Assembly: GCA_002327585.1 (NCBI GenBank)
Contig: DCWL01000006.1
Coordinates: 28,302-92,301 of the forward strand
From: Candidatus Phycocordibacter aenigmaticus
Lineage (GTDB): Bacteria; Patescibacteriota; Minisyncoccia; Phycocordibacterales; UBA2163
DNA length: 64,000 bases
Reading direction: 5' to 3'
Part shown: piece by piece, positions 6,009 through 64,000 of the stretch
How the letters are laid out: each line of letters opens with the position of its first letter
Position numbering within the stretch: the first letter of the stretch is position 1
The notes under the pieces: generated by a model
What the model was told of the DNA's origin: nothing
The model's input: the letters and a program-made list of their open reading frames with translations, nothing else
Databases searched by the model: none
Position numbers and translations under genes: made by a program

Positions 6009-6569
6009 TCAAAATAAGTTTCTTGTATCTGCCGCTGTCGGTCCTTTCTGTTTCCGATAAAGTGATTTCTTTCTTTTGTCATATGGTGTTTCGGCAGGAG
6101 AAGATAAGTATTCACAAGCAATCTGACAAATATACATATTGGGATAAATTGCAATAGCTATATTGGATTGATTGCTAATCTCAAGTGTAATATTTCCTTC
6201 AAATCCAGGATCGATAAATCCTGCCGTATGAACTAATATGCCCATTCTAGCGAGTGAACTTTTTCCTTCAACTCTGACGACCATGTCATCAGGAACTTTA
6301 ATCCATTCAACCGTACTGGCAATGACAAAATTGTTCGGGTGTAGTACAAAATGTTCCTTTTTTCTCAACTTAATAGTCTTTGTAAAATCTTTTGGCAATT
6401 TTTCTCTGATGTCCAACAAGCTTTGCTTCTCAGTATTAAATACTTTAAAAACATCGCTTAATTTTAAGTCAATAGAGGCAGGTCCAATCTGGTCAGCCGT
6501 AAGATCGGGATTAAATACAAGCTCTTTTTTTCTTATAGACATCTTTATATCTCTGTCAGATAAAACCAT
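6009..6569 (-). CDS. dcd: dCTP deaminase
   Basis: LSDRDI, PASIDL, GKSSLARMG, AGFIDPGFEGNITLEI motifs; strong SD AAAAGGAGG upstream. Confidence 0.93.
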   Translation of the reverse strand: MVLSDRDIKMSIRKKELVFNPDLTADQIGPASIDLKLSDVFKVFNTEKQSLLDIREKLPKDFTKTIKLRKKEHFVLHPNNFVIASTVEWIKVPDDMVVRVEGKSSLARMGILVHTAGFIDPGFEGNITLEISNQSNIAIAIYPNMYICQIACEYLSSPAETPYDKRKKSLYRKQKGPTAADTRNLF

Positions 6570-6611
6570 TTAAATCCTCCTTTTTCTGAAATATTGAATT
6601 TTAAATAACGA

Positions 6612-6642
6612 AAAACTCCTCATACCTTACGGCATGAGGAGT
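6612..6642 (-). terminator. intrinsic terminator of orphan 6660-7157
   Basis: ACTCCTCAT/ATGAGGAGT hairpin followed by T-run on minus strand. Confidence 0.7.
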
Positions 6643-6659
6643 CAAAAGTCAAATATATC

Positions 6660-7157
6660 TTAATCTACATTAGATACCAATTCTTCTTCAATATACTTAC
6701 TTTTTTCTAATTCTTTGAATTGCTTTTGGGTTAAAATAACGGCAATCTCATAGACAGTGCTTTTGACTTCTAAACCAGGATAATCTGTTGAATCATATGT
6801 TTCTATCTTTGTGCCCTCATCCTCATAATGATTATGGTAGTTAAGAGAACTGTGAATATTAAGTTTTTCAGTAAATACTCTATGTAGAGCTATTTTCGGA
6901 TTTTCATGGTAATAGATTTTTTCAATCAAATAATTCTTTTTCTCTTGTCCATCAACAGAAATATGTACTGTAGAGTTGTTGTGAAAAACAAATATCCTAA
7001 CCATAGAAATTCCATAGTAAATGTTACTTCCTAAAATAATAAGCTCGCAATCTCCATTATTTATCTCATTAAAAAGATCTTCTATTCCTTTACCAAAACG
7101 ATCAACCGATATCTCAAAACTTGTAAGCAAGCTCCCTAGTACTGAAGTAGTAAACAT
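6660..7157 (-). CDS. orphan hypothetical protein (SD-led cassette)
   Basis: 165-aa ORF with AAGGTAGGTG SD, upstream TTGACT...TATAAGAT promoter and own terminator. Confidence 0.65.
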   Translation of the reverse strand: MFTTSVLGSLLTSFEISVDRFGKGIEDLFNEINNGDCELIILGSNIYYGISMVRIFVFHNNSTVHISVDGQEKKNYLIEKIYYHENPKIALHRVFTEKLNIHSSLNYHNHYEDEGTKIETYDSTDYPGLEVKSTVYEIAVILTQKQFKELEKSKYIEEELVSNVD

Positions 7158-7270
7158 TCAACACCTACCTTTCTTTCAATAAGTTTCAAAATTTTATTCT
7201 GAGCATATCTTATAACATTCAATACAAAAGTCAATAAAAAACCACGAGTCAAACCCGTGATTTTTATATT

Positions 7271-7696
7271 TTAGATATCCGTCTCAATTCCCATACTTCT
7301 CGCCGTGCCTGCAATGATTTTTGCGCCTTGTTCTGGATCATTTGTGTTCAGGTCGGGAAGTTTTTTTGTGGCAATGTCTATTAGTTGCTTTTTTGTAGCC
7401 TTTCCGACTTTACTTACCAAGTTCTTTCCTGACCCTTTGTCTTTACCCAAGGCTTTCAAAAGCAGGCGTGAAGCAGGAGAAGTTTTTAACACAAAATCAA
7501 AACTCCTGTCTTCATACACGGAAATCTCAACAGGAATTATGTCTTTTCCCATCTCTTTAGTCGCGTCGTTGAACCTAGTTACAAATTCTCCGATATTAAT
7601 CCCCGCTTGCCCGAGCGCGGGGCCTATAGGTGGTGCAGGATTTGCTTTTCCTGCCAGTATTTGAAGTTTTAATTTTTTTTCAATCTTTTTAGCCAT
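7271..7696 (-). CDS. rplK: 50S ribosomal protein L11
   Basis: [25 protein letters not shown]; downstream of nusG. Confidence 0.97.
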
Positions 7697-7719
7697 AATA
7701 CTTTACAATTTAAAAATTT

Positions 7720-8262
7720 TTAAATCTTTTTAACCTGGAGAAAGTCCAGCTCAACTGGTGTTTCTCTTCCAAACATTGATACGAGAACCTTTATCTTACC
7801 CCTATCCTCGTCAACTTCCCCGATCTTCCCTTCAAGCTCCTTGAACGGCCCGTCAATTATAGTGACAGCGTCTCCTGTGGACAGCTCAATCTTATGCTTT
7901 GCGGTATCGGACTGCATTCTCTGAAGAAGCGCATCAAGCTCTTTTTTGGAAAGTGGGACAGGATGAACTCCGGAACCGACAAATCCCGTAACGCGCGGAG
8001 TGTTTCTGACAACGTACCACGAGTCGTCGTCAACAACCATATCAACAAGTACATAGCCGGGATATATTTTATCATTTTCTTCAACACGCTTGCCTGCTTT
8101 TATTTTTATTTTCTTTTCCGTAGGAACAATAACATCAAATATCTTTTCTTCCATGCCAAGAGACTCAATACGCTGCTTTAGGTTGCGAGCAACCGCATTT
8201 TCATATCCGGAATATGTGTGGATTGCGTACCAGTTTCTTTTTTGAGCAGTATCTTGCTTCAT
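7720..8262 (-). CDS. nusG: transcription termination/antitermination factor NusG
   Basis: [32 protein letters not shown] domain, FGRETPVEL. Confidence 0.97.
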
Positions 8263-8264
8263 AA

Positions 8265-8444
8265 TTAAATTACAAAGTTCTCAAGTAAAAATGTAAATAT
8301 AAAATCAAAGAGCCCAAGAAAAGCTGCTGTGAAGAGTGAGATAGCTATAACAAGTATTGTGAATATAAAGGCCTGCCGCCTTGTCGGCCAGCTGACATGT
8401 TTGAGTTCTCCTTTTGTATCTTTAATATAATTTATTAGTCTCAT
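8265..8444 (-). CDS. secE: preprotein translocase subunit SecE (59 aa, not in ORF track)
   Basis: Manual translation [50 protein letters not shown]...; secE-nusG-rplK synteny. Confidence 0.93.
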
Positions 8445-8516
8445 GATTTTTTATTAAAAAACACCCTGCGGGTGTTATGTATATACTACTTATTTTAAAA
8501 ATATAGTCAAGAACGT

Positions 8517-8540
8517 GGCCAATGTCCGAGGACATTGGCC
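8517..8540. terminator. perfect hairpin downstream of orphan 8554-8775
   Basis: GGCCAATGTCC-GA-GGACATTGGCC inverted repeat. Confidence 0.6.
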
Positions 8541-8553
8541 TTAGATAGCTTAG

Positions 8554-8775
8554 TTAAACTGTGACTTCATATCTTAAAAGATGTTGTTTTACCCCCTCTT
8601 CTGTCAGAGGAAGACCATCATCAATCAGTTCTTTAATAAACTCATCTGTAAAGTCGGCAACTATATCGGTGCTACATCCATGCTTGATAGCCGTCTTTGT
8701 AAACTTTCTGAATGTATCTCTCTCAACCTCAATTGATTTAAATCCATCACCAATACGGCCAATCAAATTAGGCAT
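8554..8775 (-). CDS. small orphan protein (SD-led cassette)
   Basis: 73-aa ORF, AAGGAG SD, TTGTAT-17-TATACT promoter, downstream hairpin. Confidence 0.65.
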   Translation of the reverse strand: MPNLIGRIGDGFKSIEVERDTFRKFTKTAIKHGCSTDIVADFTDEFIKELIDDGLPLTEEGVKQHLLRYEVTV

Positions 8776-8823
8776 AATTCATCTCCTTAAAAAGGTTTCT
8801 TGAAATCTGTATCTAGTATACCA

Positions 8824-9642: not shown

Positions 9643-9677
9643 AATTTATTAATCTATTTTATGTTATTATCTATAAT

Positions 9678-10454: not shown

Positions 10455-10480
10455 GCGATTGTGTAGAGATTATTCTGAAT

Positions 10481-12635: not shown

Positions 12636-12842
12636 TTATTGTGCACGTACAACATTATCATGGCTTTTTCTTTCTGGTTTAATTTTTAACTCGATATTTT
12701 CCTTCGTCAGACGAGTAGTGAGTTCACTCTGTTTTTTTATAACCTTTTTTTGTTTTTCTATAATTTCATTTTTCTGCTCAACTTTTTCTTTTAATTTTGC
12801 TATTTCTGCCACCATTTGATAAGTATCTACAAATTCAGACAT
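12636..12842 (-). CDS. small coiled-coil orphan protein (SD-led cassette)
   Basis: 68 aa, AAAGGAG SD, terminator GCCTGCAT/ATGCAGGC at ~12585-12624. Confidence 0.6.
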   Translation of the reverse strand: MSEFVDTYQMVAEIAKLKEKVEQKNEIIEKQKKVIKKQSELTTRLTKENIELKIKPERKSHDNVVRAQ

Positions 12843-17480: not shown

Positions 17481-17534
17481 AAAAACAACAAAAGGCGGAC
17501 GAAATTTTACCTTTTGTTGTAAAACTTCTCCGCC
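17481..17534 (-). terminator. intrinsic terminator of orphan 17543-17839
   Basis: GGCGGA...TCCGCC interrupted stem followed by T-rich run on minus strand. Confidence 0.6.
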
Positions 17535-17542
17535 CCCTTTTT

Positions 17543-17839
17543 TTACATCATTTCACAAGTGAAATGGTCGACTCTATCATCAACTCTACAGCATGTTAAC
17601 CCATTTGATACTGCAATTAGATCAGCTATTTGTGAACATAATTTCTTATTTTTTGTAATTGAATTACCTATAAAAAACTTATCGTCATCACTGGAAACAC
17701 AAAGAGAAATACTTAAAAAATCTGTTTGACGACAAATTAAAAAATCTGTTTGACGACAAAAACTAACTGTACCTTCTTTATGAAATACAATGCGGTCACC
17801 TGCTTTTAGAGTTGTTACCTTACCGTCTTTGGTTTTCAT
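17543..17839 (-). CDS. Cys-rich orphan protein (SD-led cassette) downstream of hammerhead ribozyme
   Basis: 98 aa, GAAAGGAG SD, internal 24-nt tandem duplication. Confidence 0.65.
   Translation of the reverse strand: MKTKDGKVTTLKAGDRIVFHKEGTVSFCRQTDFLICRQTDFLSISLCVSSDDDKFFIGNSITKNKKLCSQIADLIAVSNGLTCCRVDDRVDHFTCEMM
17713..17760. repeat. exact 24-nt tandem duplication
   Basis: TTAAAAAATCTGTTTGACGACAAA x2. Confidence 0.9.
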
Positions 17840-17900
17840 TTTAAATCTCCTTTCAAAAAAGTTAAAAGAAATGATAATTTTTATTTAATTCAAAGAACAT

Positions 17901-17951
17901 TCTGTTTCGCTCTTTTAAGCTCATCAGTCAAGATAGACATCTTGATACAGA
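17901..17951 (-). ncRNA. type III hammerhead ribozyme
   Basis: Minus strand UCUG-UA|UCAAGAU-gucu-AUCUUGA-CUGAUGA-GCUU-aaaa-GAGC-GAAA-CAGA: complete core, three stems, GUA cleavage triplet. Confidence 0.9.
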
Positions 17952-18122
17952 GAGGTTTTTAAAGAGACCTCAACTCTGCACTTCTGTTGCCGAGACGTTT
18001 GCGTGCCTCCGCCCAGTAGGACTTATTTATAATTTACGTCATTTTTTTTCTCCTAAAAAGTTAGATTTCTTTCTCTAGCTCTTTGGCTAGAAATAAAATT
18101 ATTTCCTTCTTTTTAAGATACT

Positions 18123-18159
18123 TATGTTGAAAACATAACATATCTACATTATTTGTCAA
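18123..18159 (-). promoter_or_regulatory. sigma70-type promoter of the hammerhead-containing unit
   Basis: TTGACA...TGT-TATGTT on minus strand. Confidence 0.6.
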
Positions 18160-18433
18160 TAGCTGTGTTCAGTAAGTCTGGATGACTTAATTTAGCTATT
18201 TTATATAAATAGTTTATTCTTTTTAACATAGTTGCATATATTATCCAAAATTTTTTCAAAATCTTTATATTTAATCCAATCGTTCTTGATTTTCACTTTT
18301 AATCCTCCGAAAAAATAAAATTTATTAAAGAACAAATCGGGAACTTTCCCTTTCAGAAACTTGAAATTATTCAAATCTCTGAAAGAGAGGCCGCACAAGA
18401 GAGTGGGTTTTAAGAGTTGCCCTTTAGCATTTA

Positions 18434-27459: not shown

Positions 27460-28374
27460 GTGGGAGCAAAAGGAGACCTTATATTGGTAATACTTATAAT
27501 AACGGGACTTGGTATTGTCTGGCTTTTTACAGGTGGGCCAGAGCGAGAGCGCCTTGATACAGGAATATTCTTGAAGCCTCCTCCTCCGCTTGGATCAGGC
27601 GAGAAATACGGAAAGTTTGGAGTTTCTATTGAAAAAGTAAGGAACAATTTAGATGAAGTGTCAGAGGAACTGGAAGATATACAGGCGCGGGGGGAATTTT
27701 CAAAATACGAAGATAAAATAACAATTGGAAAAAAAGCTTCAGGACCAAAAAAGGATTCCGCTCAGGAAGAGTATGTAATTCTGTCAGCTTCACGGAGAAA
27801 TGCAGAAAATATTTCCATTACGGGATGGAAACTTGAAAGTATGATTTCAAAAAAGAAGATGGTTATAGGCGGAGCGGTTGAGGTGTTCAGGTCGGGTGTT
27901 ATAAATGCCGAGCCACCGATATCTCTTAAAGCAGGGGAGGAAGTAATCATTTCAACCGGCCGTTCTCCAATAGGCGCATCATTTAAGATGAATAAATGTG
28001 TAGGATATTTTGAGCAATTTCAAGATTTCTCGCCGAGCTTGAGAAAGAACTGCCCAAGTCCGTTGGATGAATTTGATAAATTCGCAAACATGCCACCAAG
28101 TGATTTTACTTGCAAGGACATTGTAAAAAGTCTTAGCTGGTGCGAGATGCCCATTGATGCGCTTCCCTTAGGGACGACGAATAGTTGCAGTGAGTTCATA
28201 TCGAAAAATATAAACTACACGGGGTGCGTAAAAAACCATAGAAATGATCTAGATTTTATAGGAGATGAGTGGAGAGTTTTCCTTGGAAGAAGCGGGGAAA
28301 TATGGAGGGAAAAGCGCGAAATCATACGGCTTCTGGATAATGAAGGGAAGATTGTAGATATATACACTTATTAA
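27460..28374 (+). CDS. membrane-anchored lamin-tail-like domain protein
   Basis: N-terminal TM, EEYVIL...ISITGWKL, IW......I.LLD.EGK.VD; Cys-rich insert. Confidence 0.65.
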   Translation: MGAKGDLILVILIITGLGIVWLFTGGPERERLDTGIFLKPPPPLGSGEKYGKFGVSIEKVRNNLDEVSEELEDIQARGEFSKYEDKITIGKKASGPKKDSAQEEYVILSASRRNAENISITGWKLESMISKKKMVIGGAVEVFRSGVINAEPPISLKAGEEVIISTGRSPIGASFKMNKCVGYFEQFQDFSPSLRKNCPSPLDEFDKFANMPPSDFTCKDIVKSLSWCEMPIDALPLGTTNSCSEFISKNINYTGCVKNHRNDLDFIGDEWRVFLGRSGEIWREKREIIRLLDNEGKIVDIYTY

Positions 28375-28841
28375 ATATTAAGAACTCTGAAAATAAAAAC
28401 TCCTACTGCAACAGAAACATTGAGTGATTCTTTTCTGCCAAGCATTTTAATTTGCACAATTTGATCACACTTTTTTAAAATTAATTTTGAGAGTCCTTTT
28501 ACTTCATTTCCGAAAATAAATGCTGTAGGAAATTTTATTTTAAGTTTCTTGTAATCAATTGCATTTTCTCTCTGTTCAACTGCGATTATTTTAAATTCAT
28601 CTTTTTTGATTTTTTTTATAAGAGAATCTATTGATTTAATATGTTCCCACTCTATAGATTTTTCCGCGCCAAGCGCAGTCTTTGCTAAATCCTTCCTTGC
28701 TCTCCCAAAACGGTCCACGGGCGTAGGTGTATAGCCAGTTAGATAAATTTTTGAAATACCTGCAGCATCTGCAGTTCTAAAAATAGCGCCGATATTATGA
28801 ACGCTTCTAATGTTATGAAGTATTAAACAAGCTTTAGCCAT
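28371..28841 (-). CDS. TrmH/SpoU family RNA methyltransferase
   Basis: HNIGAIFRTADA, FGNEVKG, ESLNVSVA. Confidence 0.92.
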   Translation of the reverse strand: MAKACLILHNIRSVHNIGAIFRTADAAGISKIYLTGYTPTPVDRFGRARKDLAKTALGAEKSIEWEHIKSIDSLIKKIKKDEFKIIAVEQRENAIDYKKLKIKFPTAFIFGNEVKGLSKLILKKCDQIVQIKMLGRKESLNVSVAVGVFIFRVLNI

Positions 28842-28876
28842 AGAAAATATTATATACAAATGCTACAATATTACTA

Positions 28877-29290
28877 ATGTTAAATACATTTCCAAATCTA
28901 TTGTTTTTAGGGCTTCTCTCGCCATTTTTAATCCGCATCACAGTCGGCCTAATGTTTCTTTGGATAGGATATTCTTATTTATTCAAAGATAGAGTTACGG
29001 CTACAAATCAAGTTGCAAACAGATGGCCTAAATTGGCAATATCCATTGTATGGTTCGGCGGAATACTTGAAATTATCACTGGTTTTTTTCTTATAGCAGG
29101 ATTTCTGACGCAGATTGCCGCAATCGCAGGAGTCTTGATTGCAATTGACGCACTGTTTGTAAAGTGGCTGTACAAAGATCTGAATAAGGTGGCAAAATAC
29201 AGTAAAATGTTTTACATTCTTATGCTTGTTGCATCTTTATCTCTTATTTTCTCTGGAGCAGGCGCATTCGCGTTTGATTTACCTCTATAA
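28877..29290 (+). CDS. DoxX family membrane protein
   Basis: RI..G..F, EI..G..LIAGFLTQ, GAGAFAFD. Confidence 0.85.
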   Translation: MLNTFPNLLFLGLLSPFLIRITVGLMFLWIGYSYLFKDRVTATNQVANRWPKLAISIVWFGGILEIITGFFLIAGFLTQIAAIAGVLIAIDALFVKWLYKDLNKVAKYSKMFYILMLVASLSLIFSGAGAFAFDLPL

Positions 29291-32603: not shown

Positions 32604-32984
32604 TTACGATTTTTTTTCTTCTGACTTAGATATAGCTTCATTTCTCATTTCAAATACATCGTCAGAAGCTTCTTGGAGAACTTTGATAAGTTTGTCTACA
32701 AAATATTTGAACTTATCAGCATCGTTGGCTGTAATAAATCCAACCCTTTCGTAAAGGTTAATCGTCTCAACAAGAATATAACCTTCTATTACTTTTGATT
32801 CGAAAAACATCCAAGCTGCAGTCAAATTTCCTGGAACTTCCTCTGGGGTAAAATGTAACTCCTTAGATGAAGACACTATAGATTCAATAGCTTTGACCCT
32901 GTCAGATTTTCCCTCTGCAAACGAATTAGCAGAGAAAAAAGAAGTAACTGCGACCAACATAACAACCAACAAAATATTTTTCAT
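32604..32984 (-). CDS. secreted orphan protein (SD-led cassette)
   Basis: Signal peptide ending SFA; TTGACA-17-TATGCT promoter, GTTCTTT box, GAAAGGAG SD, terminator. Confidence 0.75.
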   Translation of the reverse strand: MKNILLVVMLVAVTSFFSANSFAEGKSDRVKAIESIVSSSKELHFTPEEVPGNLTAAWMFFESKVIEGYILVETINLYERVGFITANDADKFKYFVDKLIKVLQEASDDVFEMRNEAISKSEEKKS

Positions 32985-33072
32985 TTTTGATCTCCTTTCA
33001 AGAGATTAAATGTGAAAAAGATAAAAAGAACTTAATTAACTATGAATAGCATAGCATATTTAGATATATTTG

Positions 33073-33498
33073 TCAAGTACTAATTTCCCTGGTATTTTCG
33101 TCTATGAATTTAAAGTGTATTTCCTGTTTGTTTTCAGGTAATATATCTTTCACATTTTCCGGCCATTCTATGAAAATTAGATTCTTTGGATTCTCTAAGA
33201 TTTCTTTCCAACCTAATTGCTTTAACTCTTCTCCTTCCTTTAAGCGATATGCATCTATATGAATAAGGTAATCAAAATTTTTATCTTCTATTTTATATAT
33301 CTTTTCAATAACAAAAGTCGGACTTGTAACGGTTTTCTCAAGTCCGAATGTTTTGGCAATATATTTCACAAATGTTGTTTTCCCTGAACCAAGCTCCCCA
33401 TAAAGAGTAATGACTAAAGCAGTATCTTTGTTAGGCACAAGATTTTTAATAAATTCTTTTGCAATTTTTTCAGTTTCCTTTAAACTTTTTGCTGTCAT
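33073..33498 (-). CDS. tsaE: tRNA threonylcarbamoyladenosine biosynthesis ATPase TsaE
   Basis: GELGSGKTTF, SPTF, HIDAYRL, IEWPE. Confidence 0.95.
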   Translation of the reverse strand: MTAKSLKETEKIAKEFIKNLVPNKDTALVITLYGELGSGKTTFVKYIAKTFGLEKTVTSPTFVIEKIYKIEDKNFDYLIHIDAYRLKEGEELKQLGWKEILENPKNLIFIEWPENVKDILPENKQEIHFKFIDENTREIST

Positions 33499-33515
33499 AA
33501 ATATAATTTTAACAT

Positions 33516-33550
33516 AAAAAAGGGGAGATCTTTTTAGACTCTCCCCTTTT
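33516..33550. terminator. bidirectional terminator
   Basis: AAAAGGGGAGA...TCTCCCCTTTT. Confidence 0.75.
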
Positions 33551-33555
33551 GTACA

Positions 33556-33966
33556 TCATCCTCTTTTCCTTATTCTTCCATAATCTCTTACTTCAAAAGA
33601 GATTACGTCATTGTCGCGCCTAGATACTCGGACTCTCTCCGTGTATGACTTTGGCGCTTTTCCTTTTCTTTTGATTGTAATAATTACAGAATACTCAACT
33701 CTACGAGTTGTGCTCCCTGGAAAAACAAAAGTATGATAATCCCCCGGGCCTAAATTTGACTTTTTGCTTACACTGGAGTTGATGTCCACATAAGCATCTT
33801 CCATATTGTTGCTCACAGTAACTTCTGTGTATGGATAAATAAAAGACCTTACGGGCCAGGAATAACTTACTGTGCTTGTCTTTCCTGTATTATATACACA
33901 CCCCCCACTCATCCCGAACACAACTACTAAAAGTATTGACAAAGCCAAAAATTTAACTTTCATCAC
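33556..33966 (-). CDS. orphan putative lipoprotein (SD-led cassette)
   Basis: Signal peptide with SGG-C lipobox-like site; TTGACA-16-TATAAT; AAAGGAGG SD. Confidence 0.7.
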   Translation of the reverse strand: MMKVKFLALSILLVVVFGMSGGCVYNTGKTSTVSYSWPVRSFIYPYTEVTVSNNMEDAYVDINSSVSKKSNLGPGDYHTFVFPGSTTRRVEYSVIITIKRKGKAPKSYTERVRVSRRDNDVISFEVRDYGRIRKRG

Positions 33967-34153
33967 TTCCTCCTTTAAAGAAAAATAGATTATAAATATA
34001 AATAAGATTTCAAGTCTGTATTCATTATATCATATCTACCAATTTTGTCAATATATACCGTATTATTGACTTCTTGACCGAATCAGCATATTCTAATTAT
34101 GGAGTGCTCTTTTAAAATTTTCAGAATGTTTTATAAAAAAGGAGGCAAATGTT

Positions 34154-34474
34154 ATGTTCAAAAAAATCCTATTTATAGTAATACTGACAGTATTTATAGC
34201 TGGTTTTACAAGTATGCAGCAGAAAGCATCTGCGGACCCAAAAGATAATTTAGCAAAATCGTCAGTTGGCATAGTCGCTGGTTGGACGGAAACGGCAATT
34301 TACCCTATGCAACAAGCAGCAAAACCTGGATGGGCCGGCAAAGTGTTGTTTCCGGTTAATGTTGGTGTTGGAGCGGCAAAAGCGGCCGTACGTACAGGTA
34401 TAGGTGCTATTGATTTAGTAACATTTTTCAAAGAGAAGAACATTGTGGACAGCTGGCCGGGAGAAGATTTATAG
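34154..34474 (+). CDS. secreted/membrane protein resembling TIGR04073 family
   Basis: Signal peptide, GWTE motif, G..K...R...G..DLVTF; TTGACT-17-TATTCT promoter, boxA-like, AAAGGAGG SD. Confidence 0.7.
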   Translation: MFKKILFIVILTVFIAGFTSMQQKASADPKDNLAKSSVGIVAGWTETAIYPMQQAAKPGWAGKVLFPVNVGVGAAKAAVRTGIGAIDLVTFFKEKNIVDSWPGEDL

Positions 34475-34610
34475 TAAAAATTGTTTTAAAACAATCAGTC
34501 TGAGCACTCATAGGCCTAATCTTTATGGATTGGGCTTTTTTTATATTTTAAAAAAATGATATTATTTAAATTAAGACAAAGAGATCTTTTTAAAATCTAG
34601 AAGGAGGGAG

Positions 34611-35027
34611 GTGGGAATAATGAAACGAGCTTTGTATTACATATTTATTATTTTCATTTTTACAGTATTTTCATACACAACTCAAGCTTCAAATAAAATA
34701 AATATTAATATTCAGAAACAAGAAAAGAGTTCTATTGAAAATAGAATTGAAGGTGTTGTGGATGTGTTGTTCGGTTGGACAGAAATAGTTACAACTCCAG
34801 CAAAGGGGGCAAAAAAATATGGTTTATTTGGTTTTTTCGGTGGAGTTGTAATCTCTCCACTTAAAATGACAATAAAAATAGTAGATGGTTTTGGTAAAAT
34901 CGCCAGTGGCAGTAATAGAAAAGAGAAGAGTATTGAGAAGATTCAAATTGATATTGAGAAGGAGTTGGAAGAGTTTCTCAAAGAAGATGAGGATTTAGTT
35001 GAAAATAAAATACTTTCTTTAGAGTAA
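34611..35027 (+). CDS. second GWTE-motif paralog (TIGR04073-like)
   Basis: Signal peptide, GVVDVLFGWTEIVTTP, Gly-rich segment; AAGGAGGGAGG SD; terminator 35046-35073. Confidence 0.65.
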   Translation: MGIMKRALYYIFIIFIFTVFSYTTQASNKININIQKQEKSSIENRIEGVVDVLFGWTEIVTTPAKGAKKYGLFGFFGGVVISPLKMTIKIVDGFGKIASGSNRKEKSIEKIQIDIEKELEEFLKEDEDLVENKILSLE

Positions 35028-38612: not shown

Positions 38613-38671
38613 ATAAGTTATAAGATTAACTCTAACTTTATATTCCTCAGCACAATATTTATTACCATTAA

Positions 38672-39118
38672 AATAAAAAAGATCACCATATTTTTGGTGA
38701 TCCTATCTCTTTTACTCTTATTATAATGACACTCCCAAGAGGAAACAAAACTTCTTGCTCCTCTTGGGGCGTCAGACAGTTGCAACTCGACCCTAGTTGC
38801 CGGCGTGCCCCATTACGTACAAGCTCCGATGTGTAAGACTGTCACTACACTGGCTTGATTCCGACGTGCCTCGGTACAGCAATTCCTTGTTTATGCTCCA
38901 TGGATGAGTGACCGAGAAATCATCCCATGCGCCCAAGTCAACCTGACTTGGAATTCGACACATTACTATGTCTCCTATTGTATAGTTATGTATTCCTATA
39001 CAACCCTAATGAGTGCTCACCCATAACCGGAGGGCTTCTTTCTGTGGTTTCCTGCAAGTATCCCATCAGCGACACTTGCAACTAATATAATATTAGCCAC
39101 TTAAAGTACTAACTGTGG
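38672..39118 (-). ncRNA. candidate large structured RNA (~440 nt), may include a 56-aa ORF at 38793-38963
   Basis: TTGACA-17-TAAACT promoter, series of hairpins with G-U pairs favouring minus strand, terminator GATCACCA/TGGTGATC plus T-run. Confidence 0.55.
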
Positions 39119-39185
39119 ATAGTTTAGCATGCTTTATTTTATTTGTCAAGGAGTAAAACCTCTTCCTAAAATGTACTATGTACAT

Positions 39186-43804: not shown

Positions 43805-43942
43805 TTATTCTGGATATACATCTCGTTCTTTTACAAATTCTTTACAGGTACAACACCAATTGTTGTCCCGTATTCTCTCTCCACAGCTTATACAGCGTTT
43901 AACAACTTTGGCAAGTTTAATTACCTTCTTTTTTTCATCCAT
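43805..43942 (-). CDS. 45-aa zinc-finger-like protein (not in ORF track)
   Basis: MDEKKKVIKLAKVVKRCISCGERIRDNNWCCTCKEFVKERDVYPE; G-rich SD. Confidence 0.6.
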   Translation of the reverse strand: MDEKKKVIKLAKVVKRCISCGERIRDNNWCCTCKEFVKERDVYPE

Positions 43943-43997
43943 AGCCTGTCCCCCCACAAACACCTTTCTTTTTAATACAAAAATTAAGTAATGTTTT

Positions 43998-44162
43998 TTA
44001 CAGCTCTATGTGTGCTGTTTTTTCTTTACATTTTATACACCATAAATGCTTAATATGACCTTTTCCTCTGTTTCTATTTTTAAGCCTTTGGATACTTTGC
44101 ACTTCTCCACATTTTGTACACTCAAGGTCTTTTTTTATAAGATTATGTATACCTCTTGACAT
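43998..44162 (-). CDS. 54-aa L33-like zinc-ribbon protein (not in ORF track)
   Basis: MSRGIHNLIKKDLECTKCGEVQSIQRLKNRNRGKGHIKHLWCIKCKEKTAHIEL; GAGGAG SD; TTGACA-16-TATACT promoter. Confidence 0.8.
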   Translation of the reverse strand: MSRGIHNLIKKDLECTKCGEVQSIQRLKNRNRGKGHIKHLWCIKCKEKTAHIEL

Positions 44163-44353
44163 TTATTCTTTCTCCTCTTCAAAATAAGATTAAATGAGGT
44201 AAAATTAATTATGGTTTTTACCGTACTTCTGTTGGAAAGTATATCATGCCTATACCATTTGTCAAACACACCTAAAAACCATCTTGCTCACAGTGGAAAA
44301 CATGAAACAATTATTCAGTTGCCAATAATTGGATTCTTCCTTATAATTAAACT

Positions 44354-44500
44354 AATGGGTAGTAAACTGCACGAGTTGAGGAAACCTCTTTTTTGAAATG
44401 TGTAACCTCCTTTCCCGAGAGGCGCCATCTAAGAATGGCTACGTCAACCCAACTCGTGCCAACTTATTTTTACCGCCAAAGAATTTTTTTGGCGGTTTTT
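44354..44500. ncRNA. candidate structured sRNA with anti-SD tract
   Basis: GCACGAGTTG/CAACTCGTGC closing stem, internal hairpins, plus-strand TTGCCA-17-TATAAT promoter, shared terminator with dnaN. Confidence 0.45.
44468..44500. terminator. terminator hairpin downstream of dnaN
   Basis: ACCGCCAAA...TTTGGCGGT followed by T-run on plus strand. Confidence 0.7.
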
Positions 44501-53536: not shown

Positions 53537-53682
53537 ACCTCTAATTCTCTCATAGGTGTGGATAAATGGGAAATTTGACAATATATTATAGAATATGTTA
53601 CGATACAGCCTCGTTGTTCTTTATAGCTACATACGGCTAGCCACAGCCACATTTAACTTTTTTACAATGAAAGGGGTTTTGA

Positions 53683-54204
53683 ATGACTTCACGAACAGAT
53701 AAAAAAAAGATTTTAACTGTCGGTTTTTCCGACAATGAAAAGCAAATATTAGACGCTTCCAATGCCGGTAGGTTTGATATTACTCACGAGAGTAATACAA
53801 AAGACGGCCTGGAGAGCATCTCAAACGCGACCGTGTTTGATGCTTTATTTGTAAAGGACGGAGCATGGCCTGCCATAGAAGGCAGAAGTGCTATAGATGG
53901 TAGAGATCTGCTTAAACAAATGTCAGAGATACCTAAACTTCTTACAATAGCTATCGAAGACAGTATGTTTATAGGTATTGCCCATCCGGAATGTGGCAAA
54001 AAACCTGTTGTTCAAAACCTGAAAGATCTAGAAAGTATCAGGAATGTGGAGAGGATTACCGCATTAGATATTAGTACAAACAAAGATTTAAAAGCTTTAT
54101 TTAGTACGGTGGTTGAGAATATTATCAATGAAGAGTCATTAGTAAAAGAAGATTCGGCCGGGAAAACAGAAGATGTAAAAAACGCAGCATTTCTGACTTC
54201 CTAA
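53683..54204 (+). CDS. orphan protein with degenerate receiver-like fold (SD-led cassette)
   Basis: KILTVG...DGLESI...FDALFVKD...P...DGRDLL; promoter, boxA-like, AAAGGGG SD, terminator 54277-54308. Confidence 0.7.
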   Translation: MTSRTDKKKILTVGFSDNEKQILDASNAGRFDITHESNTKDGLESISNATVFDALFVKDGAWPAIEGRSAIDGRDLLKQMSEIPKLLTIAIEDSMFIGIAHPECGKKPVVQNLKDLESIRNVERITALDISTNKDLKALFSTVVENIINEESLVKEDSAGKTEDVKNAAFLTS

Positions 54205-57881: not shown

Positions 57882-58808
57882 TTATTTCCTTTTCTTTCCA
57901 TGAAACGTTTTATGTATTTCACGGAGATGTTTATCTGTGACATGCGTGTAGACTTGTGTTGTCGCAATGTTTGCATGCCCTAAAAGCGCCTGCACCGAGC
58001 GTAAGTCAGCACCACTTTCTAGAAGATCGGTTGCAAAGGAATGGCGCACTACATGAGGAGTCACTTTTTTAGAAATACCAGCTTTCACTGCATAGAATTT
58101 TACAATCCGCTCAACAGAACGCGGTGTAAGGCGAAGTGAATCCGCGCGTGAAGCATTTTTGCCGAATTGAATAAACAATGCTTCATCCATATCTTCTCTT
58201 TTGTCTAGATAGTTTCTTACAGCCTTTTTTGCAGAGTTTGAAAGAAAGACAACGCGGATTTTATCTCCCTTACCGCGCACAGAAAGCTCATCTTTTGAAA
58301 GGTCAATGTCATTGTTTAAAGCGCAAAGCTCTGATACGCGCAAGCCTGTGGAGAATAAGAGCTCTAATATCGCTTTGTCGCGGAGACTTTTAACATCTGT
58401 TTCATCTGGTGATGAAAGAAGTCTCCCAAGATCGTCTGAAGATATAAGGTCTAGGCTACGCTCGGAAGTTTTTGCAAGCTCAATGCGCTCAGGGGAGAGA
58501 GAATCTATCTCACGTTTGCGTAGAAATTTAAGAAATGCGCGAAGAGCTATTAAATAATAGTTTTGAGTTTTTTTCTTAAGAGTATCTTTCACCCCTTCTG
58601 TTGTTGCACCACTTTCTTGCCTATTGAGCCATAGGCGGAACTTACGGACGTTCTCATCGGTAATATCTCCCACTTTCTTTATTTTCGTGAAATCAATAAA
58701 ACGAGAAAGATATCGGTCATAGTTTTGTACAGTTTTCAGACTCCTACCTTTCTCAATCTCTAAGTATTCAAGAAACTCTTGTTTTAATTTCTCAATATTT
58801 TGCGACAT
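57882..58808 (-). CDS. XerC/D-family tyrosine recombinase
   Basis: STGLRVSEL, GKGDK.R, TPHVVRHSFAT, LLGHA...TTQVYTH. Confidence 0.93.
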   Translation of the reverse strand: MSQNIEKLKQEFLEYLEIEKGRSLKTVQNYDRYLSRFIDFTKIKKVGDITDENVRKFRLWLNRQESGATTEGVKDTLKKKTQNYYLIALRAFLKFLRKREIDSLSPERIELAKTSERSLDLISSDDLGRLLSSPDETDVKSLRDKAILELLFSTGLRVSELCALNNDIDLSKDELSVRGKGDKIRVVFLSNSAKKAVRNYLDKREDMDEALFIQFGKNASRADSLRLTPRSVERIVKFYAVKAGISKKVTPHVVRHSFATDLLESGADLRSVQALLGHANIATTQVYTHVTDKHLREIHKTFHGKKRK

Positions 58809-59210: not shown

Positions 59211-59219
59211 TCATGAATT

Positions 59220-59735
59220 ATGATAATAAAACACAAAAATCAGCGCGTTGGAATTTTTATAGATACGCAAAATCTCTACCACAGCGCTAAGAATTTATAT
59301 AAGTCAAAGGTAAACTTCGGACATGTTATAAAAGACGCACTTTCAGGGCGCAACCTTATTCGTGCCGTAGCGTATGTTGTAACGACAGAATCCGGCGAGG
59401 AAGGCGGGTTTTTTGAGGCGCTTGAAAAACTTGGAATAGAAACGAAGACGAAAGATCTTCAGGTATTTTTCGGTGGAGCAAAGAAAGCCGACTGGGATGT
59501 AGGAATTGCAATTGATGCGGTTAAAATGGCACCAAAACTCGACACCATCATTCTTGCGACGGGAGACGGCGATTTTGTGCCTTTAGTTGAATATTTGAAA
59601 ATGAAAGAGGGATGCCAGGTGGAAGTGATTTCATTTGGGCGCTCTTCTTCAAGTAAGCTTCGTGAAGTAACAGATGACTTTATTGACATGTGCGAGAATC
59701 CACGAAGGTATTTGATAGGATATAGGGGACGATAA
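59220..59735 (+). CDS. NYN domain (LabA/DUF88) protein
   Basis: FIDTQN, KADWDVGIAID, GDGDFVPL. Confidence 0.92.
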   Translation: MIIKHKNQRVGIFIDTQNLYHSAKNLYKSKVNFGHVIKDALSGRNLIRAVAYVVTTESGEEGGFFEALEKLGIETKTKDLQVFFGGAKKADWDVGIAIDAVKMAPKLDTIILATGDGDFVPLVEYLKMKEGCQVEVISFGRSSSSKLREVTDDFIDMCENPRRYLIGYRGR

Positions 59736-59737
59736 AA

Positions 59738-61873
59738 ATGCAAAAGAAAGAATATTCAATAGAAATAGGAGGAAAAACACTTACTGTTCAATTTACAGAC
59801 TTGGCAGACCAGACAAATGGCTCTGTTATTGTACGTTTAGGCAACACCTCTGTTCTGGCGACAGTCGTTATGTCAACGCATAAGCGCGAAGGGATTGACT
59901 ATTTTCCGCTCACCGTTGATTATGAAGAAAAATTCTACGCAGTGGGGCAGATTTTGGGAAGCCGTTTTCTGCGAAGAGAGGGAAGGCCGTCAGAGGAGGC
60001 AATTCTCTCCGGTAGAGTTGTTGATAGAACAATTCGCCCTTTATTTGACCAGTATATAAGAAATGAAGTGCAGGTTGTCACAACGGTACTTTCAGTTGAT
60101 AAGGATGATCCTGATATTTTGGCGATAAATGCCGCCTCAATTGCCCTTGCCGTCTCTGACATTCCATGGAACGGGCCGGTAAGTGCTGTAAGAATAGGCA
60201 AGCATAAAGGAGAAAATAAATTTGAAATAAATCCTCACTATCTTTTTAGAGAAAATAAAGATGCAGAGCTTGATATGATAATCTGCGGCAGAGATGGTGA
60301 TATAAACATGATAGAAACCGGCGCAGAGGAGTTAAGCGAGGACATATTGACAGATGCATTCATTATCGCTCTGAAAGAGATTGAGAAACTTCAGGAGTTC
60401 CAAAAGAAGATTGTAAAAGAGATTGGAAAAGAGAAACAAAAGATTGAAAAAATTCAAATGCCAAAAGAAGTCATTGAACTTTTCGAAAGTAGTGGTATCA
60501 AATCTAAATTACCGGAGGAAATATTCTCAAGTGCTGGAAAGGGAAAAGTTCATGCTCTACAGAGTGATTGGAGTGAACTTGTAAAAGAAAAATTATCAGA
60601 AGAACAGTATTTTTTAGCACACAATCTCTACGAAGAGGAAATAGACAAACTTCTCCACAGAGAAGCAATTGAAAACAATAGGCGTGCTGATGGAAGAAAA
60701 ATGGACGAAGTACGGAAACTTTTCGCGCAGGCCGGAGATATCTCAGAGATTATTCACGGCTCCGGAATATTTTACAGAGGAGGAACTCATGTATTCTCGG
60801 CGCTGACTTTAGGCGGACCAGATGATTCTCTTATTATAGACAGCATTGAAGCTCAGCAGGAGAAAAAACATTTTATACACCATTACAATTTTCCCCCGTT
60901 CTCATCTGGTGAAACTGGGAGAATGGGAGGCACGAACAGAAGAATGATAGGGCATGGTGCGCTCGCAGAGAAAGCACTTACTCCTGTAATTCCTCCCAAA
61001 GAAAAATTTCCGTATACGATACGAGTAGTATCAGAAAGCTTGGCTTCAAACGGCTCTACATCAATGGCGTCTGTGTGTGCAAGTACAATTGCTCTTATGG
61101 ACGGCGGTGTTCCTATAAAAGCGCCTGTTGCGGGAATTGCAATGGGACTTGTTATGGACGAAAAAGAAACAGGTAAATACAAAATTTTAACTGACATACA
61201 AGGACCCGAAGATCACCATGGTGATATGGATTTCAAAGTTGCTGGGACAAGGCAAGGGGTTACTGCAGTGCAGATGGACGTGAAAGTTGGAGGCATACCA
61301 ACATCAATACTTAAAGAAGCACTTGGAGAAGCAAAAAAAGCACGACTCCAGATTCTTGACATAATAGAAAAAGAAATACCGACTCCCCGCGCAAAAATAT
61401 CACAGCGTGCTCCAAAGATTGTCACAATGAAAATCAAAAAAGAGCAAATAGGAGATGTTATTGGCTCTGGTGGAAAAATTATAAACGAAATAAAAGATGA
61501 GATGAAAGTCGATGACATCAATATTGAAGATGACGGAACAATATTTATTACAGGCAAAGGTGAAAGTACAGAGCAGGCCTGGAAAGCAATTGAAGAGATT
61601 GTACACGAATATAAAGCAGGTGAACGCTACACTGGCGAAGTCATGAAAATCACTGACTTTGGGGCATTTGTAAAGATAGGAAGAAAAACAGAAGGGCTTG
61701 TTCACATTTCAGAAATTGCGCCGTTTCGGGTTAACAACGTTTCTGATATTCTTAAAGAAGGAGATAAGGTGCCTGTCGCTGTCAAAGGAGTGGATGAAAA
61801 AGACAGAATTTCTTTATCCATCAAAGCAGCTGATCCAAATTTCGCAAAAAGTAAGACAGTAGTTAAAAAGTGA
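59738..61873 (+). CDS. pnp: polyribonucleotide nucleotidyltransferase
   Basis: FPLTVDY, RREGRP, SNGSTSMASVC, GDMDFKVAGT, KH and S1 domains. Confidence 0.97.
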   Translation: MQKKEYSIEIGGKTLTVQFTDLADQTNGSVIVRLGNTSVLATVVMSTHKREGIDYFPLTVDYEEKFYAVGQILGSRFLRREGRPSEEAILSGRVVDRTIRPLFDQYIRNEVQVVTTVLSVDKDDPDILAINAASIALAVSDIPWNGPVSAVRIGKHKGENKFEINPHYLFRENKDAELDMIICGRDGDINMIETGAEELSEDILTDAFIIALKEIEKLQEFQKKIVKEIGKEKQKIEKIQMPKEVIELFESSGIKSKLPEEIFSSAGKGKVHALQSDWSELVKEKLSEEQYFLAHNLYEEEIDKLLHREAIENNRRADGRKMDEVRKLFAQAGDISEIIHGSGIFYRGGTHVFSALTLGGPDDSLIIDSIEAQQEKKHFIHHYNFPPFSSGETGRMGGTNRRMIGHGALAEKALTPVIPPKEKFPYTIRVVSESLASNGSTSMASVCASTIALMDGGVPIKAPVAGIAMGLVMDEKETGKYKILTDIQGPEDHHGDMDFKVAGTRQGVTAVQMDVKVGGIPTSILKEALGEAKKARLQILDIIEKEIPTPRAKISQRAPKIVTMKIKKEQIGDVIGSGGKIINEIKDEMKVDDINIEDDGTIFITGKGESTEQAWKAIEEIVHEYKAGERYTGEVMKITDFGAFVKIGRKTEGLVHISEIAPFRVNNVSDILKEGDKVPVAVKGVDEKDRISLSIKAADPNFAKSKTVVKK

Positions 61874-62934
61874 AATCTACTATGGAAGAAGAATCAAAAA
61901 ATGAGCTGGAAAATGAGAAGCAAGAAAATCTAAAAGTTGATTTAGAGAGTACAATCGAGCTTAAAGACCAGCCTTTCAAAGATGAATCTGAAAAAAAATC
62001 AGCCCCGATGCTCTCTGAGGTCGGAGAGAAAACATCTTTGAGGACAATGCGCACGTACAAAGATGACATTACACAAGTAATGGAGAAGAAAAAAGAGTCG
62101 CTTGTCAGTATTGCAACAGCAGAGAATAAACGTCGTATTAAAAGCAAAGGATTCGAACCCGATGACGGTGAATTGAAGAGAAAGAATCTCAAGAAAGTAG
62201 GTATTGTTATTTTAAGCACAATACTCTTTGTATTTGGTGCCAGTTCTGCTTTTTATTTTTACGAAAAGAGTGGCACTAAAGCTGTTGAACCGGAGTCAAA
62301 AATTCCGTCAATAATATTCTCGGACGAAGAGGAGGAATTTGAAATTACGAATTTGTCAAGAAGACAGATTTTAAGCGAACTCACGGCTTTAAAAGAGAGC
62401 ACGCGGCTTTCCATTGGGAGAATAAATAATATATTCATTACGGAATCTTTTATTGGCGAAGATGGAGTTGAAACAAAAGGACTTGTAAATGCAAGTAATT
62501 TTCTGAATGCTATAGATGCACATCTGCCGGCATCTTTTTTGCGTTCCCTTGAACGAGACTTTATGTTTGGTATACATATATTTAATAACAATCACCCATT
62601 TCTAATTTTGAGAACGAGTTTCTACGAGAACGCCTTTGCAGGAATGCTTGTGTGGGAAGAGAATATAAAAGAAGATCTTGCTCCTTTGTTTGGCTCCGCA
62701 GATTTTGAAGTAATCTCAGACGAGAGTGCCGAAACAAACATCTCTCCTCTTGTAATTCCGATTTTCAGTGACTTTGTCGTTAAGAATAAGGATACAAGGA
62801 TTTTAAAAGATGGTGAAGGAAAGACAGTTATCATGTATTCATTTATAGACAAAAACACAATTGTTATAACTACAAACGAAAACACTTTCAGCGAAATTTT
62901 CACGCGCCTGTCTTCATCAAGAACATTGCAGTAG
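61870..62934 (+). CDS. conserved CPR single-TM protein
   Basis: LRTMRTYKDD motif, TM, FAGML.WE, D.VVKNKDTRIL. Confidence 0.7.
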   Translation: MKSTMEEESKNELENEKQENLKVDLESTIELKDQPFKDESEKKSAPMLSEVGEKTSLRTMRTYKDDITQVMEKKKESLVSIATAENKRRIKSKGFEPDDGELKRKNLKKVGIVILSTILFVFGASSAFYFYEKSGTKAVEPESKIPSIIFSDEEEEFEITNLSRRQILSELTALKESTRLSIGRINNIFITESFIGEDGVETKGLVNASNFLNAIDAHLPASFLRSLERDFMFGIHIFNNNHPFLILRTSFYENAFAGMLVWEENIKEDLAPLFGSADFEVISDESAETNISPLVIPIFSDFVVKNKDTRILKDGEGKTVIMYSFIDKNTIVITTNENTFSEIFTRLSSSRTLQ

Positions 62935-62960
62935 TAAAATTTTCTGCTATTATATTAGTA

Positions 62961-63332
62961 ATGGAGAAAATAGATACACAATATTTTAAGGAAAAGCTTG
63001 AAACAGAACTTAATGTGCTTACTGAAGAGCTTCAAAAAATTGCAAGAATTAATCCATCAAATCCCAATGACTGGGAGCCGATCCCAGCGAAAATGGATAC
63101 ACTTGAAACGGATAAAAATGAGGTGGCGGACAGGATTGAAGCGTTTGAAAAAAACACCGCTTTAGCTAAAGAGCTTGAAATTCGGTTCAATAATATAAAA
63201 CGTGCACTTAAAAAAATTGAAGATGGCAAATACGGAATTTGTGAAGATACAGAAGAACAGATTCCCCTCGCGCGTCTTGAAGCAAATCCAGCAGCGCGTA
63301 CATGTGCTGACGTAGGAAAAAAAGAATCCTAG
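62961..63332 (+). CDS. DksA/TraR family protein
   Basis: Coiled coil, ALKKIEDGKYGIC, RLEANPAARTC (two Cys only). Confidence 0.88.
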   Translation: MEKIDTQYFKEKLETELNVLTEELQKIARINPSNPNDWEPIPAKMDTLETDKNEVADRIEAFEKNTALAKELEIRFNNIKRALKKIEDGKYGICEDTEEQIPLARLEANPAARTCADVGKKES

Positions 63333-63459
63333 TTTAAATATAGTGATAATTTTGTTACTAATGAATATTTATAACATTTTTGTGTTAAATTTTCTTAAAA
63401 CAAAAACCTGCAAATCTTAAAAACTTGCAGGTATATTATTTGGTCATTATGCGATGCTC

Positions 63460-63900
63460 TTATTGTTGGAAATAATTAATTATTTCTAGACATCTTTGCC
63501 CCTCCTGTTTAATTAAATTTACAATTTCCTGAAAAGCATCAGGAACAGATTTTGCTTCTGTTCTGTCATTAGGATAATAAGTAATTTCTACCTCATCATC
63601 ACCACATTCAATTCTATCTTCTTTGTTTTTAAATGAGAAGCTGATTAATCTTGAATCAAGATCATTATGATTACTTGCAACTTTGTATACAATACCTGCG
63701 CTAATTTCATCTTCCTTTAGTTTTTTGCAAAACACAACATCACTGTCCATAGATACTTTTCTAGCAATACTCATAATTGTTTCTTCTGCGGTATTTTTAA
63801 AATATTTTCTACCATTATCTCTAAAAGCCAAAAGTGTTTTTTCAGTTAGTTCATTTAACTCTTTGAAAAAATTCTTAACATTTTCGTCATCCATTCCCAT
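63460..63900 (-). CDS. orphan hypothetical protein (SD-led cassette)
   Basis: 146 aa; TTGACA-16-TATAAT, TAAGGAG SD, ACCTGCAA/TTGCAGGT terminator at ~63402-63432. Confidence 0.7.
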   Translation of the reverse strand: MGMDDENVKNFFKELNELTEKTLLAFRDNGRKYFKNTAEETIMSIARKVSMDSDVVFCKKLKEDEISAGIVYKVASNHNDLDSRLISFSFKNKEDRIECGDDEVEITYYPNDRTEAKSVPDAFQEIVNLIKQEGQRCLEIINYFQQ

Positions 63901-64000
63901 CTTCTTTCTCCTTATAAAAAGATTATTTAATAGGTATAAGATACATCTCTAATTTTATTATACATGTATAACACAGCTTGTCAAGATTACTAATTTTAAC

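Follow-up and report, generated by a model that had tools for sequence, protein, structure and literature searches.

How can a bacterium whose core genes start without a Shine–Dalgarno (SD) sequence keep a scattered set of genes that have a strong one, and which ribosome would read them? The question is raised by a stretch of 64,000 nucleotides (hereafter the window) from the Candidatus Phycocordibacter aenigmaticus assembly GCA_002327585.1 (contig DCWL01000006.1, positions 28,302–92,301; G000:C8:28302–92301 in our numbering), which is part of a genome of 476 kb in 16 contigs (G000). Among the rplK records closest to its own are ones from Paceibacteria, Parcubacteria, and Campbellbacteria, at 81–89%, and on sequence the genome is of the Parcubacteria (Paceibacteria) lineage. 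Where the sequencing runs containing its DNA have a named label, it is marine or seawater metagenome. An earlier note, made from the window alone, described about 13 interspersed genes with strong purine-rich SDs among housekeeping genes without them and took this as a second expression grammar, either captured from a host or phage or built for another ribosome pool, conceivably that of the host. All 13 starts indeed carry a purine-rich site that pairs with the canonical anti-SD sequence at −7.8 to −11.7 kcal/mol, those at 43942 and 53683 being atypical G-runs. The 16 housekeeping starts checked, including every one named in the note, scored 1.0 to −4.1 against the same sequence.

The 3′ tail of the G000 16S rRNA gene (contig C13) lacks CCUCC, as do the sister and order-level tails inspected, all of them read from gene sequences. 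Helix 45 was present in 201 of 301 order genomes, and CCTCC followed it in only two of the 201, both times in a second 16S copy near a contig start (L284 and L285). These two ends are probably contaminant contigs in order-level bins. The 301-genome tallies take in one unpublished genome (G256), and no claim depends on it alone. C-to-U changes that permit G–U pairs make up most of the difference between the own tail and the canonical one, and the wobble pairing of the own tail with the SD sites averages −5.5 kcal/mol as compared with −10.4 kcal/mol for the canonical anti-SD. Anti-SD loss is already in print for a Parcubacteria subgroup (Tsurumaki et al. 2022, PMC9297842), which G000 resembles in both the tail and the lineage; in the passages of that paper that were consulted, SD helices are thought not to form and SD-bearing genes go unmentioned. 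Non-anti-SD genomes, in which C-to-T/A changes have degraded the anti-SD, are also described, in the part consulted, for insect symbionts, Flavobacteria, and hemoplasmas (Lim et al. 2012, PMC3457768). They share with G000 the degenerated anti-SD and core genes without SD. Their loss means that no SD signal is left, whereas here the signal is missing from the core genes and a conserved minority class keeps it. Bacteroidetes genomes, according to the consulted part of another report, are mostly without SDs, and their ribosome, the anti-SD of which is sequestered, ignores SDs (PMC7797042); the canonical anti-SD is mostly kept there, whereas here it is gone from the sequence.

Genes were called by a purpose-written program in G000 and in the fetched parts of three genomes of the same genus (G002, 415 kb; G004, 619 kb of about 700; G005, 519 kb of about 600). 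Because these sister genomes are partial, some core genes are misfiled as variable and the contrasts are diluted. With start choice blind to the SD, AGGAG at −17 to −4 was found before 85 of 836 variable (lineage-specific) genes and 3 of 1055 core genes in the four genomes (p = 1e-27), and before 15 of the 836 in a control window shifted by 30 nt. This comparison of SD strength with gene conservation, which the note had proposed as a check, bears it out, and with the loss of CCUCC from the own 16S it strengthens the case for a second grammar. GGAAA, the best partner of the own tail, was not enriched (16, and 10 in the shifted window). In a genome of a different family (G019, 400 kb fetched), the 16S tail differs from that of G000 and the motif is still AGGAG (11/183 variable and 0/197 core genes); its own best partner, GGAAG, preceded 2/183. 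The SD motif matches the canonical anti-SD, not the cell's own tail, and tuning to the own tail found no support, its partner words being enriched neither in the genus of G000 nor in G019. The gap between the SD and the start peaked at 6–7 nt (26 + 28 occurrences). When G000 was called with the SD taken into account, an SD preceded 20 of the 102 genes with no sister homologue, 19 of 57 with one, 2 of 103 with two, and 8 of 265 with three.

The core genes start differently. Their −10 box peaks 6–7 nt before the start codon (137 and 85 of 1055; background near 15 per position), which indicates leaderless starts, the core being otherwise A/U-led. These leaderless promoters are of the extended −10 type (TG in 130/221, −35 box in 6/221). 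None of 137 SD genes had a −10 box 5–9 nt before the start, and a −35/−10 pair was found for 37 of 139 SD genes versus 27 of 346 long-gap core genes. The SD class also differs in Cys content (1.9% versus 0.4%) and in TGA stops (34/139 versus 80/1051). The word GYTCTTT occurred in 18 of 125 SD leaders versus 19 of 1055 core genes. The word may be related to boxA, but it differs from the conserved one in the rRNA leader, and Rho was found in 0/5 genomes (NusB in 5/5); antitermination is kept as a lead only.

Retention was analyzed by placing orthologue starts by alignment alone, blind to any SD in the second genome, with a site threshold of ≤ −7 kcal/mol. The site was kept by orthologues of SD genes in 26 of 42 comparisons (30–84% identity; reciprocal comparisons count a pair twice), the controls being 29 of 564 for variable genes without an SD and 53 of 2076 for core genes. 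The SD word often changed between orthologues while the pairing was kept, AAGGAG, GGAGG, GAGGTG, and G-runs interchanging, and synonymous sites are near saturation between the genus genomes (proportion of synonymous differences in core genes, 0.61–0.75). The SD sites of the accessory genes are apparently under selection. The open reading frames (ORFs) were under purifying selection in most G000–G002 pairs (dN/dS 0.04–0.53), and one short, near-identical pair gave 2.5. SD-bearing sites coincided between genomes in four of six gap-matched comparisons (p = 0.005–0.022), and some sites were empty or had swapped contents in the sisters, a comparison that the note had proposed; the other two comparisons were not significant. 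Among genes with low synonymous divergence between G000 and G002, which were likely exchanged recently, 18 of 38 were SD-led or lay within 1.5 kb of an SD gene, versus 55 of 332. Patches with 92–99% protein identity to G002 lie at 28371–29290, 33073–35027, and 6009–7157 on a background of roughly 80%, which suggests recent recombination between the G000 and G002 species.

What do these genes encode? No Pfam family was found at 1e-4 for 111 of 141 SD proteins, and most orphans remained unnamed after Pfam, NCBIfam, and PHROG scans. Three groups were then chosen by function, irrespective of any SD. In five genomes, all eight proteins with a lipobox were SD-led, versus 206 of 2697 others; they form about five independent families, one of them represented in the window at 33963. 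The lipobox Cys is kept at 43% identity in a G004/G005 pair, and the only close full-length homologue of a glycine-zipper lipoprotein is in another Parcubacteria. These proteins have the signal peptide and lipobox Cys of lipoproteins, and the enzymes expected in the same cell were not found: Lgt in 0/5 genus and 0/201 order genomes and LspA in 0/5, with control searches positive in 10/14. No twin-arginine signals turned up in the lipobox and signal scan. A second partnerless group comprises sigma-54 activators (bacterial enhancer-binding proteins), present in 7 of the 301 order genomes and absent from G000. Those with an intact GAFTGA-type loop are SD-led in G005, G048, G231, G270, and G043, weakly so in G193, and not in G059. 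The G059 protein (L240, G059 C8) is of the NtrC type, lies near a contig start beside another response regulator, and may be contamination. The activators of the sisters have the AAA+ core, GAFTGA loop, and Walker motifs, and RpoN was found in none of the 10 genomes searched (0/5 and 0/5; G059 was not among them). The G005 activator keeps GAFTGA and has no regulatory domain. In a FastTree phylogeny, from which P0059 was left out for lacking the motif, the sister clade of this protein and another Paceibacteria copy (58% identical) contains proteins named Ca. Scalindua (support 0.91). On this one gene tree, the host of this marine genus may be an anammox planctomycete (Ca. Scalindua).

The third group is Mu-Gam, which was over the cut-off in 14 of 301 order genomes including G000, was SD-led in 13 of the 14, and is 26–75% identical to the G000 copy. 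Its neighbors are ordinary or core genes. SD genes also include ordinary acquired operons, namely NeuB, pyrC/pyrD, and CBS/TrkA. In phages such as SPO1 and T7, the host-takeover or early regions contain small orphan genes equipped with strong promoters and SDs, with terminators, and with sites of RNA processing. The SD genes are alike in build and share the cargo types Gam and phrog_1257; here, in contrast, they are dispersed among the core genes of a cellular chromosome without virion, replication, or integration genes. Only 5 of 74 SD proteins matched PHROGs, the flanks are core genes, and the long-hairpin array RNA motif described below had no match in viral contigs. A prophage or phage remnant was rejected on these grounds, and the phage capture considered in the note was not supported. 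Relatives encode SD-led stand-alone ClpN domains and receiver-like ORFs (L203:3654–4097, L118:14741–15217, and L292; the receiver label was given by eye), which are candidate host-directed adaptors or phosphate sinks.

Some SD leaders carry RNA elements. The leader of the 17839 gene has a type III hammerhead ribozyme at 17899–17953 (reverse strand) with a predicted cut after 17946. It matched Rfam RF00008 at E = 1e-5 and 35.9 bits, below the gathering score of 48.5, and has the CUGAnGA...GAAA core, an NUH site, and stems I–III; cleavage is predicted from sequence. Ten distinct copies were found in genus genomes and metagenome loci. Two-sided changes occurred in 8 of 16 pairs, and 0 of 500 shuffles reached the covariation score. 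The descriptor gave one match in G000 and none in five shuffles. In those copies for which the downstream sequence was available, a U-rich stretch follows and, where the sequence extends far enough, an SD. The full core and three stems are as in the RF00008 hammerheads; the differences are the subgathering score and the setting, all 10 copies being in SD-gene arrays. At 17960–18060 (reverse strand) there is an SD-led two-codon minigene (ATG at 18043) followed by a conserved structured stretch, alike in G004 and G005. The segment 18201–18400 (reverse strand) holds a repeated long-hairpin motif (about 18339–18400), then GTTCTTT, an SD, and a 32-aa ORF (GTG near 18298), and an array promoter lies near 18130–18160. 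The long-hairpin motif was aligned in seven copies from four genus genomes, and 40 metagenome loci yielded 23 distinct copies; two-sided change was seen in only 2 of 16 pairs. The same arrays combine the hammerhead, long-hairpin motif, SD-led minigene, and a shared terminator. Most SD leaders lack the ribozyme, long-hairpin, and minigene elements. For the other two RNA motifs, HDV/theta, twister, and pistol ribozymes were considered and dropped for want of Rfam support. An att-site reading of a 16-nt identity with the tRNA-Lys 3′ end was also discarded, since the identity is not kept in the sisters. In G005 (C22, L125:1250–5660), a 4-kb array interleaves tiny SD-led ORFs with repeated structured RNAs and includes a duplicated stretch of about 210 nt, which may resemble a twister-type motif.

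At least one cassette is transcribed. Contigs over the 34154 gene are present in three marine metatranscriptome runs, all of one study, and the contig 34101–34494 begins at 34101, the predicted transcription start of that cassette. One run also has pieces of 17839, 32984, and 33963. Core genes are uncovered in these runs, which cannot rank expression.

We propose that the messages of the SD class are built for host ribosomes; this is the best reading of the data, and we give it about an even chance of being right. The SD is kept at ribosome spacing, matches a tail that the cell lacks, and stands before proteins whose usual partners the cell appears to lack, so that the reader is most simply the host ribosome. 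The accessory messages would be translated by the ribosomes of the host bacterium, where their products would act. The cassettes would be transcribed as short self-contained units, some trimmed by the ribozyme to stable 5′-OH monocistrons, and the messages would cross into the attached host, possibly via a relaxase-free type IV secretion system (T4SS). Host ribosomes, Lgt/LspA, sigma-54, and nucleases would then be the real partners. Delivery as RNA, which the ribozyme-trimmed units fit, is somewhat preferred over delivery as DNA cassettes, which the −35 promoters, terminators, and Gam fit. The T4SSs of the candidate phyla radiation are mostly relaxase-free and of unknown role, with effector delivery speculated (bioRxiv 10.1101/2025.01.22.634366; PMC11665869; parts of both consulted). 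A VirB4-like ATPase was over the cut-off in 27 of 31 relatives; a candidate conduit is present across the order, and the RNA cargo is our own inference. An order-wide form of the proposal, with a split grammar in which leaderless or A/U-led messages serve the own ribosome and ribozyme-trimmed SD mRNAs are injected to use host lipidation and sigma-54, is possible but somewhat doubtful.

Several observations weigh against host translation. No transfer was observed, and no entry of RNA or DNA into a host was shown, although this suggestion of the note is now the best-supported reading. The T4SS genes are absent from the G000 and G002 assemblies, the adjoining gene being at a contig end in both. 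The own ribosome may translate SD RNAs, as its tail still wobble-pairs, S1 is present, and A+U makes up 77% of the leaders. On average, only 45% of the SD region is unpaired. Codon use is near that of the genome (GC content at third positions, 0.28 versus 0.31), and the own RpoD keeps region 4.2, so that −35 boxes do not imply the host polymerase. Pfam families were assigned to 30 of 141 SD proteins, several of them genes of ordinary acquired operons, and the dCTP deaminase is of a Patescibacteria family and useful in the cell itself. No SD was found in 16 of the 42 orthologue comparisons, NeuB among them; we judge that misplaced starts or housekeeping-like false calls of an SD explain many of the 16, and that the NeuB miss is genuine. 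With gap size matched, no significant sharing of sites was seen for G000–G004 (p = 0.73) or G002–G004 (p = 0.17). The lipobox pattern is our own, and the Gam and activator starts were picked by eye. The RNA contigs come from one study, whose runs were found with the very stretch they cover, and they show presence only, not in which cell.

Could the own ribosome read the SDs by wobble or with the help of a protein, the products being exported as protein effectors or used in the cell? The G–U pairs allowed by the C-to-U tail and the presence of S1 would permit this, dcd and the NUDIX-like protein of the window could serve the cell, and a T4SS could move proteins. Against this, the motif does not track the varying tail across families and is avoided by core and ribosomal-protein genes. 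The lipoprotein precursors would meet the own Sec in a cell where no Lgt/LspA was found. A search of 108 noncoding sites gave no candidate trans-acting anti-SD RNA, and CsrA was over the cut-off in 0/5 genomes. We consider translation by the own ribosome unlikely. The parasite may instead import host ribosomes or share cytoplasm, with messages read inside or at its own cell. The canonical SD and self-useful genes such as dcd are explained equally well in this way; by itself, it leaves unexplained the lipoboxes, since Lgt/LspA are membrane-bound, and the sigma-54 activators, which need host polymerase and DNA. It found no support in the literature searched and is decidedly improbable.

The SDs may also be neutral relics, brought in by competence as part of donor DNA. 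SDs are natural in genes of foreign type, the ordinary acquired operons and the NeuB homologue without SD are as expected of relics, and recent exchange between sister species is evident. Relics, which the note had considered as captured cassettes, account for a minority of the class, but they do not explain an SD that persists with changed words at saturated synonymous divergence, where a stronger constraint on the SD than on the flanking leader is already suggested for long-resident genes. The closest full-length homologues tested are from other Parcubacteria, codon use is ameliorated, and the same leader and signal peptide can stand before different mature domains. As a general explanation, relics are quite improbable. 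A reading in which the GAAAGGAG-like word has nothing to do with ribosome docking, and is instead bound by a protein or acts through RNA structure as a leader hairpin, export tag, or regulator site, is highly improbable. Several leaders fold a short hairpin over the SD by eye (mean unpaired 0.45) and some carry ribozymes and repeated structures; the fixed spacing of 6–7 nt and the free exchange among the four kinds of SD word fit pairing with CCUCC, and the CsrA result gives a regulator of that type no support.

If messages of the SD class are indeed built for host ribosomes, this would be mRNA effector delivery from bacterium to bacterium, by which a cellular parasite programs another bacterium with nucleic acid as a phage does. 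The SD would then be a genomic tag that lists the effector genes in any genome of the order and a pointer to hosts, here Ca. Scalindua. These points address how Patescibacteria exploit their hosts and what their T4SS carries. Should host translation prove wrong, some other reader would still be required for an SD class that is conserved in a cell lacking the anti-SD. A full-text search, which largely missed subscription papers and supplements, turned up nothing in print on an SD-led class or host translation in these bacteria, nor on their having hammerheads or Lgt-independent lipoproteins.

The 13 cassettes of the window vary in completeness, and their earlier description holds with some corrections. 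The TTGAC-16/18-TAnnnT promoter was confirmed for seven (7157, 32984, 33966, 34154, 44162, 53683, and 63900). The match at 6569 lies within the upstream terminator hairpin and is doubtful, 17839 relies on the array promoter near 18125, and no −35 box was found at 8775, 12842, 34611, and 43942. A strong hairpin with a U-run, as read by eye from the folds, follows 10 of the 13; the hairpin of 8775 has no U-run, no strong hairpin follows 53683, and 44162 continues into 43942. The sole integrase-family gene of the window (57882–58808) is a core gene, 81–86% identical in three sisters. An integron array would have IntI and attI/attC-bounded cassettes that usually lack promoters; here, the cassettes have their own promoters and the only integrase of the window is this core gene, and no attC search was made. 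Most of the products remain unnamed, as the note stated of nearly all, exceptions being 6569, 44162, and, weakly, 34154.

The first cassette (6009–6569, reverse strand) encodes a dCTP deaminase of 186 aa with the SD AAGGAGG and a terminator after it (Pfam PF22769, E = 6e-44). Its named relatives are mostly Patescibacteria at 66–70%, and homologues occur in only 2 of 151 order genomes at E ≤ 1e-40, so that an SD comparison across the order was not possible. The next (6660–7200, reverse strand) has a promoter, leader, ORF of 165 aa (6660–7157), and terminator, and its orthologues in G005 and G008 (about 31% identity) keep the SD. The product is predicted to have a degenerate NUDIX fold: one of five AlphaFold2 models had a pLDDT of 71, and the best Foldseek matches were MutT/RppH (probability up to 1.0, best E 4e-3). 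A PDB sequence search with its alignment gave no matches, and the NUDIX likeness is weak. An SD-led orphan of 73 aa (8554–8775, reverse strand) lies upstream of a secE-like ORF and nusG; a homologue (32% identical) in a Campbellbacteria record (L038) has a different, equally strong SD. After tRNA-Leu, there is an SD-led orphan of 68 aa with a terminator (12636–12842, reverse strand), and the same site has an unrelated SD-led ORF in G005 and none in G004. The 17839 gene encodes an SD-led orphan of 98 aa (17543–17839; 17488–17839 with the terminator, reverse strand; RNA contigs 17486–17634 and 17836–17893), and its terminator also closes SD arrays in the sisters.

Between polA and tsaE, a cassette at 32604–33075 (reverse strand; ORF 32604–32984) has a promoter, leader, signal peptide, and swappable mature domain. 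The promoter, SD, and signal peptide are kept in G000, G002, G004, and G005, and the mature parts of the four show no relationship or no more than 35% identity. The unit at 33556–34050 (reverse strand; RNA contig 33649–33802) encodes the predicted lipoprotein, SD-led with its own promoter and terminator. Its start, given as 33966, is probably the ATG at 33963, and a structure-Atlas match (0.92) to an unnamed cluster gave no identity. On the forward strand, the transcribed unit 34101–34530 has its own promoter and terminator and encodes an SD-led secreted protein (34154–34474) with a weak likeness to TIGR04073. It is followed by an SD-led paralogue (34611–35027, forward strand; start at GTG 34611 or ATG 34620), 29% identical and likewise TIGR04073-like and secreted. 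A two-gene SD unit at 43805–44260 (reverse strand) has one promoter and one terminator for a 54-aa zinc finger (43998–44162) and a 45-aa Cys-rich ORF (43805–43942). The zinc finger matched phrog_1257 ("ribosome associated inhibitor A; zinc finger", E = 2e-15) and has about 50% identity with proteins from large phages of Staphylococcus and Bacillus. The SD-led orphan of 173 aa at 53611–54204 (forward strand; ORF 53683–54204) has its own promoter, and a 90% orthologue in G002 keeps the leader; a single-sequence fold was uninformative (pLDDT 31). The last (63410–63985, reverse strand) is an SD-led orphan of 146 aa (63460–63900) with its own promoter and terminator, and its interval in G004 holds an unrelated SD-led secreted ORF.

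Other features of the window were observed. An insert of about 570 bp (38620–39160) between a yebC-like gene and ruvC is GC-rich and self-complementary with no Rfam match; the two genes are adjacent in G002 and G005 (empty site), and G004 has an SD-led secreted ORF there. A long hairpin of about 95 nt between dnaN and the zinc-finger cassette (44365–44460, reverse strand) had no Rfam match at the gathering level and is possibly a small RNA. The segment 11354–11821 is a non-SD ORF with a weak match to TnsA-like endonuclease and is absent from three sisters. G000 also encodes a tRNA-Ile with the TAT anticodon.

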